A stretch of DNA of 64,000 nt, from assembly GCA_038240075.1 (NCBI GenBank), contig JBBSEC010000003.1:5753-69752 (forward strand). The letters are read 5' to 3'. A program made the translations under genes and the position numbers. The DNA comes from Acidimicrobiia bacterium. Its GTDB lineage: Bacteria; Actinomycetota; Acidimicrobiia; IMCC26256; PALSA-610. Below, piece by piece: positions 16,634 to 36,751 of the stretch. Every line of letters begins with the position of its first letter. Position 1 is the stretch's first letter. The notes beneath the pieces are model-generated. The model made no database searches and had not been told where the DNA came from. It saw only the letters and a list, made by a program, of their open reading frames with translations.

Positions 16634-16669
16634 CCCGCTTCCGCGCGGCGAGCCCCCCCGCCCACGTCC

Positions 16670-16715
16670 TTGGTACTGCACCTATGTCGTATGCGTCATA
16701 GGTGCAGTACCAGGG
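16670..16715. repeat. family-2 palindromic element, copy 1 (perfect 16-bp stem hairpin)
   Basis: TGGTACTGCACCTATG (16671-16686) pairs with CATAGGTGCAGTACCA (16697-16712), loop of 10 nt. It lies between convergent gene ends. There is a near-identical copy at 32037-32082. Confidence 0.75.
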
Positions 16716-16727
16716 CGTGCGGTTCCC

Positions 16728-17798
16728 TCAGGGCACGAGGGGTGGGTAGTAGTTCTCGGCGCCGATCTTCTTGATGTCCTCGAACCACGAGCCGTCGTAC
16801 GCGTCGGTGTGGCCCTGGCGGACGGGGTCTTCGAAGTTCCAGGCCTGGCGCTTGTAGGTCCAGTTGTCGGGATAGAGCCGGTGCGCTTCGCGCCAGTGCA
16901 CGATCGCGCCGGGGTGGTCGCCGGTGCGGTGCAGGTGCTCGCCGAGCTCGAAGTGCGCGGCCGCCGAGGCCTCGTCGTTCGTTCTCGGTTGCGACCGCGC
17001 GACAACCTCCTCGGGCGTGTGCGCGTACTGGCTCTCGGCGCCGTGCTCGACCCAGTCGCGCAGCATCTCGAGGTAGAGCTCGGGTTGCGCGCGAATCTTG
17101 CGCGCCTCGGTGAGTACGTCGGCGATGTCGGGAGGCACGGTCGAGAGGTCGATGTCGCGGAACGACTCGGTCGCGGGATTCGGTCCCGGATGCGCCTGCT
17201 CGGCCGGTCGCACGATCATGCCGGCTTCGTCGATCCACACACCGTTGGGCACGTTGACCATGCCGAACCGTTCGTCGACGACATGCTTCGAATCAATGAG
17301 CGACGGGTGGTCGGGGTGCGCAGCCTCGATGAACGGGCGGGCAGCATCGGGGTCGACGTCGAGCCCGACGGTGACGATCTCGAGTCCGCGAGGGTGGAGC
17401 TCAGTCCGCAGTGCCTGCCACCCGGGCAGGTCGAAGCGGCAGCCTCACCACGATGCCCACGCGATCAGCAGCACCTTCTGACCGTGCAGGCTCGACAGCT
17501 TGAACAGGTTGCCGTCGGCGTCGGGCAGCTCGAGCTCCGGCGCAACGGCCGTGGTGAGGAACCGGCCGGTGACCGCGGTCTCGGGACCGAGTGCGGAGAG
17601 ACCGCGCTCGTGATCCGACACGAGCGGCATGCCCAGACGCTCGGCGACGACCGCGACATCGAGCCGGCCGTCGGCCGTCCGCGCGGCAGGGGAGAGCGGA
17701 ACGCACACCTCGCCGCGGCACGCGCCTTCGGGCTTGATCGACCAGCCGGTCGCGGTCTCGAACGCGGCCGGATCGACGACCAACTCGGTGAGGATCAT
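16728..17798 (-). CDS. thioredoxin-fold (ResA/TlpA-like) protein with in-frame TGA at the redox motif; probable selenoprotein (W-A-S-W-U-G-C)
   Basis: Track ORFs 17445..17798 and 16728..17261 are in the same frame and are separated only by TGA 17447-17445. Read-through gives ...KVLLIAWASW-U-GCRFDLPGWQALRTELHPRGLEIVTVGLDVD..., a redoxin signature with the stop in place of the first active-site Cys. Confidence 0.65.
17406..17439 (-). promoter_or_regulatory. SECIS-like stem-loop downstream of the in-frame UGA
   Basis: On the minus-strand RNA: CCGC-UUCGA-CCUGCC-CGGGU-GGCAGG-CACU-GCGG. A 4-bp lower stem, an internal loop and a 6-bp upper stem, with a G-rich apical loop about 24-26 nt after the U of UGA. 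Confidence 0.45.
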
Positions 17799-17820: not shown

Positions 17821-18681
17821 TCAGTACCGCAGCTCGGCGACGATCCCGTAGTGGTCGGATCCGTACATGCCGTCGACGGGCTCGTTGCCGATGATCGACG
17901 CGAGCAACGGTTGCCCGCACCCGGTGCCCTTCGGCGCGGCAACGAGGATGTGGTCGATGCGTCGGTCGAGGTCGAGGCTCGCCGCGGCGAACGGATTGTC
18001 GTTCGACCAGGTCGCGCCGCGATCGCGGTTGCCGACCCACGTCCAGACGTCGCGGAACAACACTCCCGGAACGGGAACGGCCTGTTGCCCGGTGAGCACG
18101 CGCAGCTCGTCGCTGTCGGGGTCGGCGTTGAGATCGCCGAGCAGCACCGCGGGGAACGTCCGCGGTCGGCTCTCGCGCACGAAGCGGCAGATCTCGGCGG
18201 CCTGCTCCTGGCGGATCGCGCTGTGATCCGCGCGCCAGCTGAGGTGCGCGCAGAACACCTGGATCGGGCCACGCGGACCGTCGATCTCCGCCAGCACCAC
18301 GAGTCGTTCTTCGCCCTCGTCGTCGCTCACTCCTCCGGCCGCACGCGGGAGCGTGCGCACCGCGTGCCGCGTGATGGGCCAGCGGGACAGGACGGCATTG
18401 CCCGACCGCGCGCCGTCGCGTTCGAGGTTGGCGGCGTAGACGGGCTCCGCGTAACCGAGCGCGGCAGCGAGCTCTGCGGCCTGGCTGCGGCGATCGTCTT
18501 CCCACACCTCCTGCAGCCCGACGATGTCGGCGTCGACGTGGCGCAGGGTCTCGATGATCGCCGGGAGCCGTGCTTCCCACGGTCCGTAGCGACCCCACAG
18601 ATTCCACGTCGCGATGCGCACCCGGGTCTCGAGCAGGCGGCCGTAGCCGGCGTCGTACTCAAGCGGCTGCTCCGAGGTCAT
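17821..18681 (-). CDS. endonuclease/exonuclease/phosphatase (EEP) family protein
   Basis: ATG at 18681-18679 (MTSEQPLEY...). IATWNLWG, GLQEV, GDLNAD and SDHYGIV motifs. Confidence 0.9.
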   Translation of the reverse strand: MTSEQPLEYDAGYGRLLETRVRIATWNLWGRYGPWEARLPAIIETLRHVDADIVGLQEVWEDDRRSQAAELAAALGYAEPVYAANLERDGARSGNAVLSRWPITRHAVRTLPRAAGGVSDDEGEERLVVLAEIDGPRGPIQVFCAHLSWRADHSAIRQEQAAEICRFVRESRPRTFPAVLLGDLNADPDSDELRVLTGQQAVPVPGVLFRDVWTWVGNRDRGATWSNDNPFAAASLDLDRRIDHILVAAPKGTGCGQPLLASIIGNEPVDGMYGSDHYGIVAELRY

Positions 18682-18783
18682 GCAAGGATCATGCCGCGTG
18701 CGCCGGGCCGGGTGATCCACACGGACGGGGCACGGCGAACAATCTCCAGCCAGCACTCGATCCATCGCACCCCGGGGGGAACC

Positions 18784-19353
18784 GTGGACAGTCTCGTGAT
18801 GTTGCAGCGGGTCGTCGACACGACGACCGACATGATCGGAAACACGTCGGCGAAGCAGCTTTCGAATCCGACGTTGTGCACCGAGTGGACCGTGAAGGAC
18901 CTCATCAACCACATGGTCTCGGGTGCGACGATGTTCGCGATCTCGGCGGAGCAGGGATCGATCCCCGACGACATGCTCGGGAAGCTGATGAGCAGCGACA
19001 ACGTCGGCGACGACCCGCAGGGCGCATGGGACACCGCGGCGAAGCGGGCCATGAGCGCGTTCGAGGCACCGGGCGCGATGGACAAGATCGTGAAGCTGCC
19101 CTTCGGTGAGATGCCCGCGGGTATCGCGCTCAACATCGCGATCTTCGACGTCGCGACGCACTCCGTCGACCTCGCCCGCGCCACGGGCCAGAAGGTCACC
19201 GACACCGAGTTGCTCGAAGACGCGCTGATCATCGCCCAGCAGATGGTCGGTCCCGAGCTGCGCCAGCCCGGGATCTTCGGCGAGGCGCAGCCGTGCCCCG
19301 ACAACGCGCCGGTCGACGACCGCCTCCTCGCCTTCGCCGGTCGCAAGATCTGA
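18784..19353 (+). CDS. DinB/MDMPI-N-like metal-binding protein (TIGR03086-like)
   Basis: C-terminal part of shadow ORF 17851..19353. GTG 18784 follows GGGGGGA. WTVKDLINHMV...ATHSVDLARATG pattern. Confidence 0.75.
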   Translation: MDSLVMLQRVVDTTTDMIGNTSAKQLSNPTLCTEWTVKDLINHMVSGATMFAISAEQGSIPDDMLGKLMSSDNVGDDPQGAWDTAAKRAMSAFEAPGAMDKIVKLPFGEMPAGIALNIAIFDVATHSVDLARATGQKVTDTELLEDALIIAQQMVGPELRQPGIFGEAQPCPDNAPVDDRLLAFAGRKI

Positions 19354-19390
19354 CCGCTCGATCTCACCTCCGGGTTCGTATGCTCGCCGC

Positions 19391-20104
19391 ATGAACGGTG
19401 AGCCCCGGTTCCAGCCCATGCCCGACGACTGGTCGCGCGCGCTCGCCATCGTCGCCCATCCCGACGACCTCGAGTACGGCGCGGCGAGCGCCATCGCGAA
19501 GTGGACCGACGCGGGCAAGCAGGTCTCGTATCTGCTGGTGACGCGCGGCGAAGCGGGAATCGACACGCTCGAACCGTCGGAGTGCGCGCGCGTGCGGGAG
19601 GCGGAAGAGCGCGCGAGCGCGGCGACGGTGGGCGTGTCGGATGTCGACTTCCTCGGATACACCGATGGGGTGATCGAGTACGGAGTGGGACTCCGACGCG
19701 ATCTCGCGCACGCGATCCGCCGGGCCCGGCCGGATTTGCTGCTCACAATCAATCACCACGACTCGTGGGGCGGTCCGAGCTTCAACATGGCCGACCACCG
19801 CAACGTCGGGCTCGCGGTGCTCGACGCGTCGCGCGATGCCGGCAACCGCTGGGTCTTCCCGGAGCCCGGTCTCGAACCATGGGGTGGCGTCCGATACGTC
19901 GCGGTCAACGCCTCACCGCAGGCGGCCCACGCCGTCGATGTCGGTGCGTACATCGAACGGGGGATCGCGTCACTCGAGTGCCACGCCGCGTACCTCGCGT
20001 ACGTCGGGGGCGACGCGCGCGAGATCATCACCGGGCCGGCGCGGGCCACGGGCGACGCGTTGGGCTGCGAATATGCCGTGAGCTTCGAACTGTTCGAGTT
20101 CTAA
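19391..20104 (+). CDS. PIG-L family deacetylase (LmbE-like)
   Basis: ALAIVAHPDDLEYGAASAI motif (AHPDD). Confidence 0.9.
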   Translation: MNGEPRFQPMPDDWSRALAIVAHPDDLEYGAASAIAKWTDAGKQVSYLLVTRGEAGIDTLEPSECARVREAEERASAATVGVSDVDFLGYTDGVIEYGVGLRRDLAHAIRRARPDLLLTINHHDSWGGPSFNMADHRNVGLAVLDASRDAGNRWVFPEPGLEPWGGVRYVAVNASPQAAHAVDVGAYIERGIASLECHAAYLAYVGGDAREIITGPARATGDALGCEYAVSFELFEF

Positions 20105-26801: not shown

Positions 26802-27989
26802 CTACCGGTTCCGGCTCAGTCTCGAGCTCTCGCGGTCGGTCGACGTGCTGCCGATGCAGCGGTGGTTGGGGTTGGTGATGGTGAGGGTGGTGCCGTCGAA
26901 CGTCGCGTGCCATCCGGGTTTGTGGAGGACGTGGTGGTGGAAGTCGCATAAGAAGACGAGGTTCGCGATGACGGTCGTGCCGTTGGGGAACGGGTTGACG
27001 TGATGGACTTGGCCGTGGGTTCGGTCGCAGCCGGGATATCGGCAGCGACCGCCGTCTCGGTGCAGCACGGCTCTTCGGAGTGTGCGTGAGGGCCGGTAGA
27101 TCGCGGCACCGACGTCGAGGGGCGTGCCGTTCGCGTCGAGGACGATCAGTTGCAGTTTCGATTCGCACACGAGCCGGCTGACCTGGCTTTGGGTGAGGGC
27201 GAGATCGCCGGTCGTCTCATCGTTGCCGGTGAGGAGCGATTCGAGGGTGGCCGTGATGGTGATGTGAGGTCGTTCACCGTCTTCGGTCGGGCTTTCACCG
27301 CGGTCGAGGAAGTCCCGGCAGATGCGGCCGAGCGCGTCGGCACGCCGCTGCGCAGGAGTACGCGGGTCGTCGTCGCCGGGCTTATCGGTCGCGGCGTTGA
27401 CGGCGTGCTTGATCGTCGCGCCGAGCAGCCCGTCGAGATCACCCTTCAGCGCCCACCGGTCTGCGACTGGGGAGAGGTACACGCCGTTGGTGTCTTCGGG
27501 TGGTTTGTCGTCGAGTTCGTCGCAGCGGAGCTGGTAGTACCGGATCCGCGCGTCGAGCCCCCGGAAATCGGCCGCCTCCGCGAGTTGGACGAGGTCGTCT
27601 TCCATCGTCGCGTACACGGCTTCATGGTTCTGGCGGCGACCCAACGCGATCGTCGTCGCGGCACTCGCGGAGATCTCACCCTGAGCCCACGCTTTCGCGA
27701 CGAGGGGGAGGGTTTCGCATGCTTTCCCCGCGGCGAGGGAGATGCGCGCGTCGCGGAACCGTTGCCCGGTCTGGAGTTGCACCCACGCCGGCGTCGATGA
27801 TGCACCGTCACCCGAGGGGATCCCACGACCCGCAATCGCGACGAGTAGCCGTGCGGCGTATGCCTCGGCACGGTCGATCGCGCGGCGCGTTTCGATGTAG
27901 CGCTCCCGGATCTCCGAGTCGCACATGTCGCTCGGGTCGAGGTCGTCGACGACGCTCGTGAGGGCTGCGAGCATGCCCCAATTGTACAC
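26802..27989 (-). CDS. DUF222/HNH endonuclease (13E12-repeat-like) protein
   Basis: C-terminal HRDGGRCRYPGCDR...HHVNPF...NLVFLCDFHHHVLH HNH signature. Start is GTG 27989 or ATG 27974. Confidence 0.85.
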   Translation of the reverse strand: MYNWGMLAALTSVVDDLDPSDMCDSEIRERYIETRRAIDRAEAYAARLLVAIAGRGIPSGDGASSTPAWVQLQTGQRFRDARISLAAGKACETLPLVAKAWAQGEISASAATTIALGRRQNHEAVYATMEDDLVQLAEAADFRGLDARIRYYQLRCDELDDKPPEDTNGVYLSPVADRWALKGDLDGLLGATIKHAVNAATDKPGDDDPRTPAQRRADALGRICRDFLDRGESPTEDGERPHITITATLESLLTGNDETTGDLALTQSQVSRLVCESKLQLIVLDANGTPLDVGAAIYRPSRTLRRAVLHRDGGRCRYPGCDRTHGQVHHVNPFPNGTTVIANLVFLCDFHHHVLHKPGWHATFDGTTLTITNPNHRCIGSTSTDRESSRLSRNR

Positions 27990-28003
27990 CGAACACGTGT
28001 TCG
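27990..28003. promoter_or_regulatory. LexA SOS box (GAAC-N4-GTTC type)
   Basis: The minus strand reads TCGAACACGTGTTCGG immediately 5' of the HNH gene start. This is 11 of 12 positions of the TCGAAC-N4-GTTCGA form known for mycobacterial LexA. Confidence 0.6.
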
Positions 28004-28063
28004 ATAACAGGCAGAATATCCAGCAAATACAGGCCTAAATCGCGCTGCTCGGTGCAGAAGACG

Positions 28064-30778: not shown

Positions 30779-31594
30779 GTGACCGACCCAGATCCGTCCG
30801 TGGTGCAGATCGAATGGCCGCGGCCGGGTGTCGCGCTGCTGCGCCTCAACCGTCCCGAACGGCTCAACGCGTTGAGCCAAGACCTGGTCGCCGCGATCCC
30901 GGCCGCGCTCACGACCGTCGCGGCCGATCGCGCGTGCCGGGTGATCGTGCTGACCGGTGCCGGCCGGGGGTTCTGCGCGGGTCTCGACCTGCAGGCGACC
31001 ACGAGCTCCGTCGACGGGTTCGGGCGGGGTCCGGCGAGCATGCTCGAAGGTCAGGAGCGGTTCTCGTCGATGATCGCGACGCTGCGATCGCTGCGCCAAC
31101 CCGTGATCGCGGCGGTCAACGGGCCGGCCGCCGGCGCGGGCCTCGCGCTGGCGCTCGGGTCGGATATTCGCATCGCGGCGCGCTCGGCGCGCTTCCACGT
31201 CGCGGCCGTGAAGCTGGGTCTGTCGGGCGGGGAGTGCGGGATGAGCTATCTGCTGCCCCGTCAGATCGGATCGGCGCGGGCGTTCGAGCTGCTGCTCACG
31301 GGCCGGCCGTTCGGCGCCGACGAAGCCGAGCGCATCGGCCTGGTCGCGCGCGTCGTTCCCGACGACGAGTTGCTCGAGGCCGCGTTCGAGATGGCGGCCG
31401 CCATCGTTGCCAACAGCCCGCTCGCGGTGTGGCTGACGAAGCAGGTGGTGTGGTCGAATCTCGACGCCGCGAGCTTCGAGTCGGCGATCGAGCTCGAGAA
31501 CCGCACGCAGGTGCTCGCCTCGACGAGCCGCGACAGCGCGGAAGCGATGCGCGCATTCGTCGAGAAACGGCCGGCGGTCTTCAGCGGGGAGTAG
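30779..31594 (+). CDS. enoyl-CoA hydratase/isomerase family protein
   Basis: 271 aa. LTGAGRGFCAGLD...AVNGPAAGAG. Confidence 0.9.
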   Translation: MTDPDPSVVQIEWPRPGVALLRLNRPERLNALSQDLVAAIPAALTTVAADRACRVIVLTGAGRGFCAGLDLQATTSSVDGFGRGPASMLEGQERFSSMIATLRSLRQPVIAAVNGPAAGAGLALALGSDIRIAARSARFHVAAVKLGLSGGECGMSYLLPRQIGSARAFELLLTGRPFGADEAERIGLVARVVPDDELLEAAFEMAAAIVANSPLAVWLTKQVVWSNLDAASFESAIELENRTQVLASTSRDSAEAMRAFVEKRPAVFSGE

Positions 31595-31989
31595 CGCCGC
31601 GCTGCGTGCGCCGACGGAGCAGATCCTTCAGCGGCCGCCGCCGCGGTTTGTCGTCGAGGGTGTTGTGACCGAATCGGAACTCGAGGTACAGCTGCTTCAC
31701 CGCACCCGCGAGCGGAGTCGCGAACAGCGCGCCGGGGATCCCGCCCGCGGCTCCGCCGATCAGTGCGGCGAGCATCGTCGTCGGTGGTGACAGGTCGACG
31801 GCCTCACCGACGATGGCCGGTTGAATCACGTGGTTCTCGAGGTTCTGGTACAGCAGGTAGAGCATGAGGCACACGACACCGATCGTGACGCTCTGGCTCA
31901 CCGCGAGCACGGTGAAGGACGCGCCGCCGAGGAAGCCACCCACCTGCGGGAATCAGGTCGGTGATGACCATCCGCGGCCGCAGCGTCAC
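31581..31989 (-). pseudogene. AI-2E (PerM/UPF0118) transporter remnant, 5'-truncated and frameshifted
   Basis: Only the C-terminal ~120 aa is present (VGGFLGGASFTVLAV...YQNLENHVIQPAIVGEAVDLSP). The motif just upstream (VITDLIP) is in another frame (track ORF 31804..31989). No N-terminal two thirds. Confidence 0.6.
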
Positions 31990-32036
31990 CCTGATGTCTC
32001 ACGACGCCGGCCAGCACCCTGGGTCGAAACGGCTGC

Positions 32037-32082
32037 TTGGTACTGCACCTATGTCGTATGCGTAGAAAGTGCAGTACCAGGG
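32037..32082. repeat. family-2 palindromic element, copy 2
   Basis: TTGGTACTGCACCTATGTCGTATGCGTAGAAAGTGCAGTACCAGGG. The first 27 nt and the last 14 nt are identical to copy 1. An 11-bp outer stem is kept. Confidence 0.7.
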
Positions 32083-34455: not shown

Positions 34456-35778
<1,323 letters not shown>

Positions 35779-35908
35779 CGCGGCAGCGTATGCCCGATGG
35801 AGCGGCGAGCGATGATCCCCGCAACGATCCTGGGGGAGACGAGACGAGTCGGAGCGAGCGCGACCATGAGCATGGCGCGTCCCCGAGAGCCGCACGTACG
35901 ATCCCGCG

Positions 35909-36751
35909 ATGGCCGATCGCGACTACGAGATGATCACCTTCGAGCAGCAGGACAACGGCGTCGCGTGGCTGACGCTCAGCCGCCCACAGGTGCACAACGC
36001 CTTCAACATCCAGATGCGCAACGAGCTGAAGGACTGCTGGCGTTCCTTACGCTACGACGACGACGTCCGTTGCGTCGTGCTCACGGGGGCGGGCGAGCGG
36101 GCCTTCTGCACCGGGATCGACCGCACGGAGACGATGGGCGACGGCTATCCCGCCGACGGGGCCGCAAAGAAGGAAGGCGGGACCGGCTTCGCGAAGTCGC
36201 CGTGGATGTTCGACGACCCCGGCGACGAGATCGGCCCGAAGTCGTGCGATCTCTGGAAACCCGTCATCGCGGCAGTGAACGGCATCGCGTGCGGTGGCGC
36301 GTTCTACATGCTCGGTGAGGTCGAGTTCATCATCGCCGCGGACCACGCGACGTTCTTCGACCCCCACGTCACCTACGGCATGACGCCGGTGTTCGAGCCG
36401 ATCCACGTGATGCAAAAGATGCCGTTCCACGAGATCATGCGGATCTCGCTGCTCGGCAACCACGAACGCATGTCGGCGAAGCGCGCGCACGAGATCGGGT
36501 TCGTCTCGGAGGTCGCGCCCCTCGCCGAATTGCGTGAGCGCGCGCAGTGGGCGGCCGACGCGATCGCGTCGGCTCCGGCCCTCGCGACGGCGGGTGCCGT
36601 GCGTGCGCTCTGGATGGCGCTCGAGCTCTCTCGGAAACAGGCGCTCGACATGGGCTTCTCGCTCATCCGGATCGGCAGCGATCCCGCGAGCATCTCCGAA
36701 GGCCAGGAGAAGTTCGCGGGCGGACAGCGCATCGAGCCGAGGATCCGGTAG
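35909..36751 (+). CDS. enoyl-CoA hydratase/crotonase family protein
   Basis: 280 aa. LTGAGERAFCTGID...AVNGIACGGA. Confidence 0.9.
   Translation: MADRDYEMITFEQQDNGVAWLTLSRPQVHNAFNIQMRNELKDCWRSLRYDDDVRCVVLTGAGERAFCTGIDRTETMGDGYPADGAAKKEGGTGFAKSPWMFDDPGDEIGPKSCDLWKPVIAAVNGIACGGAFYMLGEVEFIIAADHATFFDPHVTYGMTPVFEPIHVMQKMPFHEIMRISLLGNHERMSAKRAHEIGFVSEVAPLAELRERAQWAADAIASAPALATAGAVRALWMALELSRKQALDMGFSLIRIGSDPASISEGQEKFAGGQRIEPRIR

Follow-up and report, generated by a model that had tools for sequence, protein, structure and literature searches.

The minus-strand interval 17798..16728 of the window, i.e. the whole 64,000-nucleotide stretch of DNA analysed here, very probably constitutes a single gene, the product of which would be a cytoplasmic selenoprotein, 356 residues long, of the WAxxUGC type (a UGC-containing, ResA(TlpA, Prx)-like protein), in which the UGA at 17447-17445 would be read as selenocysteine (Sec) by means of a downstream hairpin acting as SECIS.

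Translation of this frame yields a single internal stop, the TGA, which joins the ORFs 17445..17798 and 16728..17261 in a common frame, as the original prediction had claimed. The stop is preceded by GQKVLLIAWASW and followed by GCRFDLPGW (with the codon written in, LLIAWASW-TGA-GCRFDLPGW), and the Cys that was expected two residues after it is present (W114-A-S-W-(TGA)-G-C120). In 53 of 62 Sec-form relatives, an ATG or GTG aligns with the start codon, which supports this start. Beyond the internal TGA, an in-frame start first occurs 62 codons further on, with the ATG at 17261. ORF calling yields two pieces of 117 and 177 aa from the one 356-residue gene. The same splitting, also foreseen, is evident in the databases, where the 29 closest matches (77-87% identity) are C-terminal fragments starting right after the motif, as results from a conserved TGA at which gene callers break the gene. 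The correct annotation should be a single 356-residue selenoprotein with a transl_except at 17447-17445. Within the 64-kb window, no second TGA-interrupted gene with a redox context was found. The features of the gene and its surroundings are collected in Table 1.

Table 1. Coordinates of the selenoprotein gene, its predicted domains and RNA elements within the window.
Feature	Position	Strand	Remarks
Complete predicted selenoprotein CDS	16728..17798	-	356 codons plus terminal TGA 16730-16728; ATG 17798-17796; Sec is residue 118
N-terminal domain, ~residues 1-78	17565..17798	-	Invariant Gly18, Trp19, Gly25, Cys27, Cys32 and Pro34
Thioredoxin-fold (ResA/TlpA/DsbE-like) catalytic domain, ~residues 81-205	17184..17558	-	W-A-S-W-U-G-C; cis-Pro loop N182-V183-P184
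Putative Sec codon U118	17445..17447	-	UGA in place of the nucleophilic (N-terminal) active-site Cys of the thioredoxin fold, from comparative data
Cys120, predicted resolving Cys of U-G-C	17439..17441	-	Unchanged throughout the Sec and Cys forms; counterpart of the second CxxC Cys
Extended hairpin	17406..17439	-	Core plus 4-bp lower stem (17439-17436 paired to 17409-17406); predicted by MFE folding of the window sequence
Conserved core of the putative SECIS	17414..17430	-	5' arm CCUGCC 17430-17425, loop CGGGU 17424-17420, 3' arm GGCAGG 17419-17414
C-terminal helical domain, ~residues 206-356	16731..17183	-	One TPR-like repeat at 279-312; invariant N312-W-T-Y-x-R-Q-x-W320
46-nt palindromic element	16669..16715		Lies 17 nt beyond the stop codon and separates the gene from a convergent ABC-2 permease gene

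The protein matches the NCBIfam family NF041054 (WAxxUGC_long, 'ResA-like WAxxUGC motif-containing protein') with 557.9 bits (E = 1e-167, cutoff 300) and from end to end, residues 1-354 aligning with positions 1-352 of 354 in the profile. The curated ResA-like selenoprotein family to which the original prediction had pointed is the one found here, and the match extends over its full length. Motif, length, domain order and the occurrence of Sec/Cys pairs are the same, with no substantive difference; the window protein is a member of an already curated selenoprotein family and not a new kind. The U column of the motif W-A-x-x-U-G-C is TGA or TGY in 80/80 related loci, the nearest species-level relative having 82% protein identity. 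A literature search on the string 'WAxxUGC' returned no paper, the family going under other names there: it has been called 'Prx-like (UGC-containing)' or 'UGC-containing TlpA family' selenoprotein since 2008 and is listed as a predicted selenoprotein (PMC2398784, PMC9312934, PMC13188914). The example accessions given in the literature (MDE0950781.1 and MBL6689828.1) may belong to the same 'long' subfamily NF041054. Cys homologues have been reported as far more numerous, with 46 Sec vs 855 Cys sequences of the family in the GOS paper, and the family as commoner in non-marine samples; the relatives found here are soil, peat and groundwater MAGs with several phylum-level labels, which is consistent with that prevalence. 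In the literature, we found no experimental demonstration of selenium in any family member. JGI product names among the homologues include 'peroxiredoxin' and, for two of the 29 fragments, 'tetratricopeptide (TPR) repeat protein'.

Across 80 species-level genomic loci, the codon at the U column is TGA in 63, TGC in 16 and TGT in one, and never TAA or TAG. Among complete relatives, OY970233.1 and OY970315.1 are TGA forms and OY970186.1 is a Cys form. The original prediction had placed the stop at the position of the first active-site Cys, and the alignment bears this out, since the same column is Cys in 17/80 loci and in 91/91 full-length database homologues, where the motif reads WASW-C-GC. 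The further disruptions that would be expected of a decaying gene were also looked for in close relatives, and 63/80 loci keep the TGA with both halves open and conserved. The frame around this codon is open for at least 110 codons upstream and ~238 codons downstream (80 loci). The mean identity of the Sec forms to the window protein is 0.76 over residues 81-117 and again 0.76 over residues 119-200, and this equal conservation on either side of the TGA indicates purifying selection on both halves. Besides, Cys27 and Cys32 are retained in the Sec forms. As TGA is also the commonest ordinary stop within the window (26 of 41 Pfam-supported genes, including the terminator of this very gene), the genetic code is not reassigned. 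Based on these comparisons, we conclude that the in-frame TGA is almost certainly the selenocysteine codon of a thioredoxin-fold redox protein.

The hairpin originally predicted downstream of the TGA consisted of a 4-bp lower stem and a CCUGCC/GGCAGG upper stem with a CGGGU loop about 24-26 nt from the UGA. The upper stem-loop is present and conserved, its 6-bp stem beginning 14 nt past the UGA and its loop located at nt 24-28 (the U of UGA counted as 1), close to where it had been placed. Pairing of the upper stem is complete (100%) over the 62 distinct Sec sequences, which show zero broken pairs and two compensatory changes (C19U/G33A in locus L003 and C18U/G34A in L079), as against 68% stem pairing in the Cys forms, and the apical loop follows a family consensus CGKGU in which G27-U28 is invariant. 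The lower stem did not hold up: its outer pair 9-42 occurs in 7/62 sequences and pair 12-39 in 45/62, the RNAalifold consensus omits it, and it is specific to the window and no conserved part of the element.

The hairpin also leaves its mark on codon usage. Third-position entropy over the hairpin is 0-0.14 bits in the Sec forms, compared with 1.3-1.7 bits at flanking four-fold sites, and 1.2-1.7 bits over the Cys forms and flanking sites together; the frozen synonymous sites are codons +5 to +10 (GAC CTG CCC GKG TGG CAG) and are found in Sec forms only. The Pro codon is CCC in 98% of the Sec forms and CCG in 70% of the Cys forms, and the residue at U+8 is Val or Gly in the former and mostly Leu, with some His or Phe, in the latter. 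The exact TGA-N14-hairpin string is found at 60/63 Sec loci and 0/17 Cys loci. At least three nested switches between Sec and Cys were counted among the 63 Sec and 17 Cys forms, and the hairpin is lost in the Cys lineages nested in the Sec clade (L011, L036 and the L038-L044 group). The string CCTGCC-N5-GGCAGG occurs once in the window versus 0.01 expected. The folding energy is no better than that of shuffled sequences (-27.7 vs -27.9 +/- 3.0 kcal/mol, z = 0.08), but in DNA of 69% G+C this z-score is uninformative, and we therefore relied on the comparative data. Rfam gave no match at gathering thresholds over the whole window, and a permissive scan of 17350-17480 returned only chance matches (E > 2); this negative is uninformative as well, because Rfam is without usable bacterial SECIS models (bioRxiv 10.64898/2026.04.03.716425). 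According to the comparative data, selection acts on both the TGA and the upper hairpin, in the latter case at the RNA level. The evidence for the stem is mostly invariance, which could in principle also reflect a sequence-specific constraint other than pairing.

Neither selA, selB, selD nor tRNA-Sec was found in the 64-kb window (ARAGORN and Pfam annotation of ~50 ORFs), and the flanks of 49 related loci likewise contain none of them, including no tRNA-Sec by ARAGORN. Scanning 1.3 Mb for SelA/SelB/SelD motifs also gave nothing, a weak negative given that the scan is crude. Several Actinobacteria (PMC5029168) and another order of Acidimicrobiia (bioRxiv 10.64898/2026.04.03.716425) are documented to have Sec machinery. 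In the organism of the window, Sec is presumably inserted. The neighbours in the window (EEP-family, ABC-2 transporter, TetR, P450, DinB/MDMPI and PIG-L genes) give no clue to an operon partner, since none recurs in more than 14/81 loci, the EEP gene in 11/81. An apparent neighbour cluster at 73 loci turned out to be an antisense shadow ORF of the gene itself. The palindromic element adjoining the selenoprotein gene (RNA fold -48.3 kcal/mol, z = -7.3) has a second copy at 32036-32082 and is absent from all 80 related loci, and no T-run terminator was called there. It may be a terminator without a U-tract or a dispersed repeat, and any part in the Sec mechanism is not indicated.

A Cys-form ResA-like gene killed by a TGC-to-TGA nonsense mutation, next to a coincidental hairpin, would take one base change only, and the split gene calls, the hairpin stability ordinary for the G+C content and the lack of Sec machinery in the window would all suit a pseudogene. 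Nevertheless, the TGA is common to 63 species-level genomes spanning 58-82% protein identity, a divergence that excludes one recently spread allele, and no other disruption is seen apart from an upstream stop in locus L068. Its two halves are equally conserved, the stop is never TAA or TAG, and the synonymous freezing and compensatory changes of the hairpin are confined to sequences that carry the TGA, so that we give a dead gene almost no credence. A sequencing or assembly error is just as improbable. The codon is likewise one base away from TGC, and many of the related loci are long-read MAGs with some errors, as the extra stop in L068 illustrates, but the identical codon recurs in 63 assemblies that were made independently, by different projects and with different technologies, and the window's own codon usage over the hairpin (CCC, CTG, GKG) is that of a Sec form and not of a mis-called Cys form.

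In other systems, a stem-loop that follows a stop codon can promote read-through, and the UGA could be decoded by a near-cognate Trp or Cys tRNA with hairpin stimulation; alternatively, re-initiation could give two assembling polypeptides (117 aa and ~177-238 aa), in line with an N-terminal domain that folds independently in the model. Against decoding without Sec stands the exchange of this column with Cys codons only, a hallmark of Sec/Cys pairs, together with the position and small G-containing loop of the hairpin, which are those described for bacterial SECIS elements (PMC1088965). Two polypeptides fit poorly with a stop inside the beta1-alpha1 active-site turn, where a break removes the catalytic residue, and re-initiation from the first start, ATG 17261, would give a product without helix alpha-1 and Cys120. 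We consider these variants together very unlikely, though somewhat less so than a pseudogene or an error.

Structural data locate the Sec residue within a known fold. The structure model is an AlphaFold2 model of the Cys homologue P0001, which is 72% identical to the window protein (pLDDT 93.2, pTM 0.90). In Foldseek, the catalytic domain superimposes on ResA (2f9s) with a target TM of 0.76 and an rmsd of 1.8 A; Pfam AhpC-TSA and Redoxin match residues 85-197, and the PDB profile matches of the domain are ResA, TlpA and DsbE. In the alignment with 3gl3, U118 falls on the first Cys of W-A-S-W-C-G-P-C, while U-G-C is one residue shorter than CxxC, with a gap opposite the Pro of W-C-G-P-C and likewise against TlpA and other relatives. 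The TlpA/ResA-type signature read from the sequence at the outset is thus borne out as regards the ResA-like fold and the U at the first active-site Cys, but the motif is not a plain CxxC. The N-terminal domain, which carries Cys27 (codon 17720-17718) and Cys32 (codon 17705-17703, both on the minus strand), has no Pfam match and no significant relative in the PDB (best Foldseek E = 1.8). Residues 1-70 are nonetheless modelled with pLDDT > 90 in an AlphaFold2 run on the window's own 117-aa ORF. The C-terminal domain is all-helical in the model, with a Pfam TPR_2 hit at 279-312 of 24 bits, under the cutoff of 27, and PDB TPR matches to the same span. The maximum Kyte-Doolittle(19) hydropathy is 0.93 and the first 8 residues contain no Lys or Arg; taken with the folded soluble domain of residues 1-70, this argues for the absence of a signal peptide or membrane anchor.

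Based on these data, we propose that the UGA is decoded as selenocysteine during translation, with the 17-nt hairpin CCUGCC-CGGGU-GGCAGG, 14 nt downstream of it, serving as a bacterial SECIS. We infer that SelB binds this hairpin, which would deliver SelB.GTP.Sec-tRNA(Sec) to the ribosome, where it would compete with release factor 2. Sec118 would be located at the N-terminus of helix alpha-1 in place of the nucleophilic Cys of CxxC, with Cys120 as its resolving partner. With one residue fewer between the two, oxidation would close a U-G-C ring through a selenenylsulfide. Most likely, the protein acts as a thiol/selenol-dependent oxidoreductase, presumably reducing disulfide or sulfenic-type substrates or acting as a peroxidase, and the two family-specific flanking domains would set its specificity. 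A different chemistry is conceivable, although we hold it to be rather unlikely: instead of a ResA/TlpA-type protein-disulfide reductase, the protein would be a cytoplasmic three-domain selenoenzyme with a chemistry of its own, whose strained U-G-C selenenylsulfide is recycled via Cys27/Cys32 on the N-terminal domain and whose substrate is chosen by the N-W-T-Y-x-R-Q-x-W surface. If this three-domain reading is true, the near-invariant 17-nt SECIS would represent an unusually sequence-specific SelB recognition element across several phyla.

The favoured interpretation, a UGC-containing ResA-like selenoprotein of the curated family, implies Sec decoding by an uncultured Acidimicrobiia-like actinobacterium. 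The 63 Sec and 17 Cys forms also provide a natural experiment, pointing to a bacterial SECIS that constrains codon choice and one amino acid (U+8).

Like the bacterial SECIS of the E. coli fdhF/fdnG type and the bSECIS consensus of Zhang and Gladyshev, the hairpin is found inside the coding sequence immediately 3' of the UGA and combines a short stem with a small, G-containing apical loop. In E. coli, an upper stem-loop of ~17 nt, ~11 nt from the UGA and with an essential G and U in the loop, forms the minimal element. Unlike this type, the window hairpin has no bulged U in its stem, a spacing of 14 nt rather than 11, and a CGKGU loop. It is nearly invariant in sequence across several phylum-level labels, in contrast to the poor sequence conservation usually ascribed to bacterial SECIS elements.

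Selenoproteins of the GPx and peroxiredoxin (AhpC/TSA) types belong to the thioredoxin superfamily, as does the window protein, and the stretch VLLI-x-x-AS-x-U-G resembles the GPx active-site signature. A GPx reading of 'VASxUG' was rejected, with Pfam GSHPx (PF00255) scoring 20.9 bits, below its cutoff of 27, and ResA, TlpA and DsbE as structural neighbours with no GPx among the top ones. AhpC-TSA (PF00578), a profile that also takes in TlpA-like proteins, gives 46.1 bits (cutoff 26), but the protein lacks the Prx motif P-x-x-x-T-x-x-C, having L111 and A115 at positions -7 and -3 from U118, and Prx is not found among the structural neighbours.

ResA, TlpA and CcmG(DsbE) are thiol-disulfide oxidoreductases that work outside the cytoplasm in the maturation of cytochrome c and Cu centres. 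An association of this kind was looked for, and no ccm, res or sco genes were found near the gene. The window protein shares with them the thioredoxin-like fold with a central insertion (target TM 0.72-0.78, rmsd ~1.8 A), the W-A-[ST]-W lead-in, the cis-Pro loop and the nucleophile at the N-terminus of helix alpha-1. Where they have C-x-x-C, it has U-G-C and would use Sec, and, unlike these extracytoplasmic proteins, it is without a signal peptide or membrane anchor as judged by hydropathy and the model. No solved structure spans the whole protein (query TM 0.31), which goes beyond ResA, TlpA and CcmG at both ends: the extra N-terminal domain bears a second pair of invariant Cys residues, and the extra C-terminal domain is helical and 150 residues long.

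Upon translation, the minus-strand frame of the selenoprotein gene contained a single internal stop, a TGA in the context GQKVLLIAWASW-*-GCRFDLPGWQ, confirming the original prediction that two ORFs share one frame and are split by this TGA alone (coordinates are collected in the table). An EEP-family gene precedes the gene on the same strand with a spacing of 22 nt, and an ABC-2 transporter operon is convergent with it. For the protein searches, Cys was put in for the internal stop. The 356-residue product matched the NCBIfam equivalog NF041054 ('WAxxUGC_long', ResA-like WAxxUGC motif-containing protein) with E = 1e-167 and 557.9 bits (curated cutoff 300), residues 1-354 aligning with profile positions 1-352 of 354. 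The curated ResA-like selenoprotein family named in the original prediction thus exists, and the match to it is full-length. Pfam detected AhpC-TSA and Redoxin at residues 85-197 and, below threshold, a TPR repeat at 279-312 and GSHPx. The gene is a plain member of a curated, published and already known selenoprotein family, which the NCBI annotation pipeline, naming proteins by NCBIfam models, should recognise. [quoted passage not shown]

The relatives retrieved by the protein searches fell into two classes. The 91 full-length proteins, none more than 72% identical, all carried W-A-S/T-W-C-G-C, and all 29 of the closest relatives (77-87% identical) were C-terminal fragments starting right after the motif. 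Such fragments are the expected output of gene callers at a conserved TGA, as had been foreseen. The comparative set comprised 80 genomic loci from species-representative genomes, mostly Acidimicrobiia or Actinomycetota MAGs, with Chloroflexota, Dehalococcoidia, Binataceae, Burkholderiales, Gemmatimonadales, Verrucomicrobiaceae and Frankia (n=3) as minority labels. The codon at the redox column was TGA in 63 loci (Sec forms), TGC in 16 and TGT in one (Cys forms), and TAA or TAG in none. Cys at this column, which the original prediction had named as a check, was hence found in 91/91 full-length proteins and in 17/80 loci.

The possibility that the TGA is a lesion in a pseudogene is ruled out by the fixation of one nonsense codon at one column in proteins whose identity has fallen to 58-82%. 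All 80 loci were open in frame for at least 110 codons 5' and about 238 codons 3' of this column, and Sec forms were equally conserved on both sides of the TGA, the mean identity to the window being 0.76 both for residues 81-117 and for residues 119-200. The N-terminal Cys27 was kept in 61/62 and Cys32 in 62/62 Sec-form sequences. Further disruptions in close relatives, which would have favored decay of the gene, were absent with one exception. In L068 (TGA at L068:1433), an extra in-frame stop lies ~31 codons upstream of the Sec codon, either through an error of long-read assembly or because L068 is a true pseudogene; it has no parallel in the rest of the 63 Sec-form loci. Reassignment of the genetic code is also excluded, since TGA is the most frequent ordinary stop in the window (26 of 41 Pfam-supported genes, including the terminator of the selenoprotein gene itself), and the recoding must therefore be local. 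Within the window, no second coding frame broken by a TGA in a redox context was found.

The hairpin of the original prediction was recovered as drawn in the predicted fold of the RNA 3' of the TGA, and its upper 6-bp stem-loop proved to be conserved, but its 4-bp lower stem did not. The folding energy was no lower than that of dinucleotide shuffles (-27.7 vs -27.9 +/- 3.0 kcal/mol, z = 0.08), so that stability alone is not evidence in DNA of 69% G+C. The evidence comes from an alignment of the 60 nt that start at the TGA, or at its Cys counterpart, for 64 Sec forms and 20 Cys forms. Codons +5 to +10 of the Sec forms read GAC CTG CCC GKG TGG CAG and were near-invariant, with a third-position entropy of 0-0.14 bits vs 1.3-1.7 bits at flanking four-fold sites. 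The Cys forms retained the D-L-P-x-W-Q peptide, and their choice of codons was free (Leu H3 = 1.21); the Pro codon (U+7, counted from Sec) was CCC in 98% of Sec forms and CCG in 70% of Cys forms. Residue U+8, encoded by the loop (alignment columns 24-28), was Val or Gly (codon GKG) in Sec forms and mainly Leu, with some His or Phe, in Cys forms, indicating that the RNA shapes the protein sequence.

All six pairs of the conserved 17-nt core, CCUGCC-CGKGU-GGCAGG, were formed in 100% of the 62 distinct Sec sequences, with none broken and with two independent compensatory double changes (C19U/G33A in L003, C18U/G34A in L079), and the RNAalifold consensus of the Sec alignment was exactly this helix. 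In the Cys forms, 68% of cells in the same columns were paired. The exact string TGA-N14-CCTGCCCGKGTGGCAGG occurred in 60/63 Sec loci and 0/17 Cys loci; a looser hairpin motif was observed once in the window vs 0.01 expected, and nowhere else in any locus. The outer pair of the lower stem was formed in 7/62 sequences, and two of its pairs are invariant because Arg codons fix them; the lower stem lies outside the conserved element. In a neighbour-joining tree, the window groups with L001, L002 and L007 within a large Sec clade, in which at least three Cys lineages are nested (L011; L036; the L038-L044 group), and the hairpin has decayed in each of them. The two deepest branches are tandem Cys-form paralogues (WASWCGCRED..., WASWCGCAHD...) lying ~2.5 kb apart in Frankia.

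The stem begins 14 nt after the UGA and the loop spans nt 24-28, with G25 and G27-U28 conserved. This position and loop agree with the minimal 17-nt upper stem-loop of E. coli fdhF. The position and the small loop with a conserved G also match what has been published on bacterial SECIS elements (PMC1088965). The hairpin had no match in Rfam, as expected, since that database does not cover bacterial SECIS elements (bioRxiv 10.64898/2026.04.03.716425).

No tRNA gene of any kind was found in the window, nor SelA, SelB or SelD among its ~50 Pfam-annotated ORFs. The flanks of 49 related loci yielded no tRNA-Sec, and 1.3 Mb scanned crudely for SelA, SelB and SelD motifs gave no hit. Considering that Actinomarinales, another order of Acidimicrobiia, have complete Sec machinery (bioRxiv 10.64898/2026.04.03.716425) and that Sec-using Actinobacteria are documented more generally (PMC5029168), Sec use by the source lineage is plausible.

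The AlphaFold2 model of P0001, the closest full-length Cys homologue (72% identical, equal length, motif position identical), is a single compact three-domain protein (mean pLDDT 93.2, pTM 0.90). Its central domain (~81-205) matches in structure the thioredoxin-like proteins of ResA, TlpA and DsbE type (target TM 0.72-0.78, rmsd ~1.8 A over ~115 residues); no solved structure spanning the whole protein was found (query TM ~0.31). Sequence alignment with solved relatives sets W-A-S-W-C-G-P-C-R (3gl3) against W-A-S-W-U-G-·-C-R in the window and Pro184 on their cis-Pro. Sec118 would thus occupy the position of the nucleophilic N-terminal Cys at the start of helix alpha-1, and Cys120 that of the resolving Cys, with one intervening residue deleted. 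The N-terminal domain (~1-78) carries a separate invariant Cys pair (Cys27 and Cys32) and has neither a Pfam match nor a significant neighbour in the PDB (best E = 1.8); a model of the 117-aa ORF of the window itself had pLDDT >90 for residues 1-70. The C-terminal domain (150 residues) is helical in the model; it contains a single TPR-like repeat and an N-W-T-Y-x-R-Q-x-W block that is invariant. The four Cys/Sec positions (27, 32, 118, 120) are the only ones in the protein and all are invariant. No hydrophobic segment or signal-like N-terminus was found (maximum KD(19) 0.93). We propose a Sec-dependent thiol/selenol oxidoreductase that would cycle via a U118-C120 selenenylsulfide. Its substrate may be a disulfide, a mixed disulfide or a peroxide, and Cys27/Cys32 may serve as an electron relay. 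No neighbour gene family was present at >14 of the 81 loci, and genomic context therefore offers no partner.

Besides, a ~46-nt palindromic element, TTGGTACTGCACCTATGTCGTATGCGT[CATAGG/AGAAAG]TGCAGTACCAGGG, occurs in two intergenic copies in the window and in 0/80 related loci; its 14-mer has 3 occurrences vs 0.08 expected. The element could act as a terminator without a U-tract or as a regulator operator, or could be a small dispersed repeat. The copy at 32036-32082 lies just upstream of an AI-2E family transporter ORF that appears to be what is left of a truncated gene. Next to the selenoprotein gene, two long ORFs on opposite strands overlap; each is only partly a real gene, and they exemplify high-GC shadow ORFs that could mislead ORF-based reading. 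Genes of mycothiol-metabolism type and a DUF222 gene are consistent with an actinobacterial origin; linkage of MDMPI_N/DinB-like and PIG-L genes to the selenoprotein gene is common only to L001 and L002.

Coordinates of the features discussed, in the window or in related Frankia loci
Feature	Location	Coordinates	Strand	Remark
Selenoprotein gene	window	17798..16728	-	ATG 17798, terminal TGA 16730-16728
ORFs split by internal TGA	window	17445..17798; 16728..17261	-	
Internal TGA	window	17447-17445	-	codon 118
Upper stem-loop	window	17430-17414	-	6-bp CCUGCC/GGCAGG stem, CGGGU loop
Loop, residue U+8	window	17420-17424	-	
4-bp lower stem	window	17439-17436 with 17409-17406	-	
Palindromic element	window	16669-16715		perfect 15-bp arms, -48.3 kcal/mol, z = -7.3; 17 nt past selenoprotein stop, between convergent genes
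Palindromic element	window	32036-32082		
AI-2E family transporter ORF	window	31581-31943	-	120 aa, matching only positions 235-325 of 327-position Pfam profile
Overlapping long ORFs	window	17821..19752; 17851..19353	-; +	region 17821-19353
EEP-family gene	window	17821-18699	-	real part of overlapping ORF
DinB/MDMPI_N-family gene	window	~18700-19353	+	real part of overlapping ORF
Mycothiol-metabolism-type genes	window	18700-20104; 34456-35922		MDMPI_N/DinB-like, PIG-L (MshB/Mca-like) deacetylase, myo-inositol-1-phosphate synthase
DUF222	window	26802-28034		
Frankia paralogue pair	L067	10352, 12789		
Frankia paralogue pair	L072	10352, 12865		
Frankia paralogue pair	L076	10352, 12878		

Overall, the original prediction was correct and its use lies in annotation. 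The present analysis refines a known family by precisely defining the conserved SECIS core and finding the lower stem non-conserved. It adds a Sec/Cys natural experiment, in which the RNA constraint is visible on codons and on one residue, and a domain description flagging an N-terminal domain that bears a Cys pair and has no solved relative. Assignment to the GPx family was rejected, the Pfam score being under threshold. Membership of ResA/TlpA/CcmG proper was rejected as well, as a CxxC motif, signs of export or of membrane anchoring, and neighbouring genes for cytochrome maturation were each looked for and not found; ResA, TlpA and CcmG differ in location from the selenoprotein, which is predicted to be cytoplasmic. 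The gene would work like other bacterial Sec/Cys redox pairs with a SECIS element inside the ORF.
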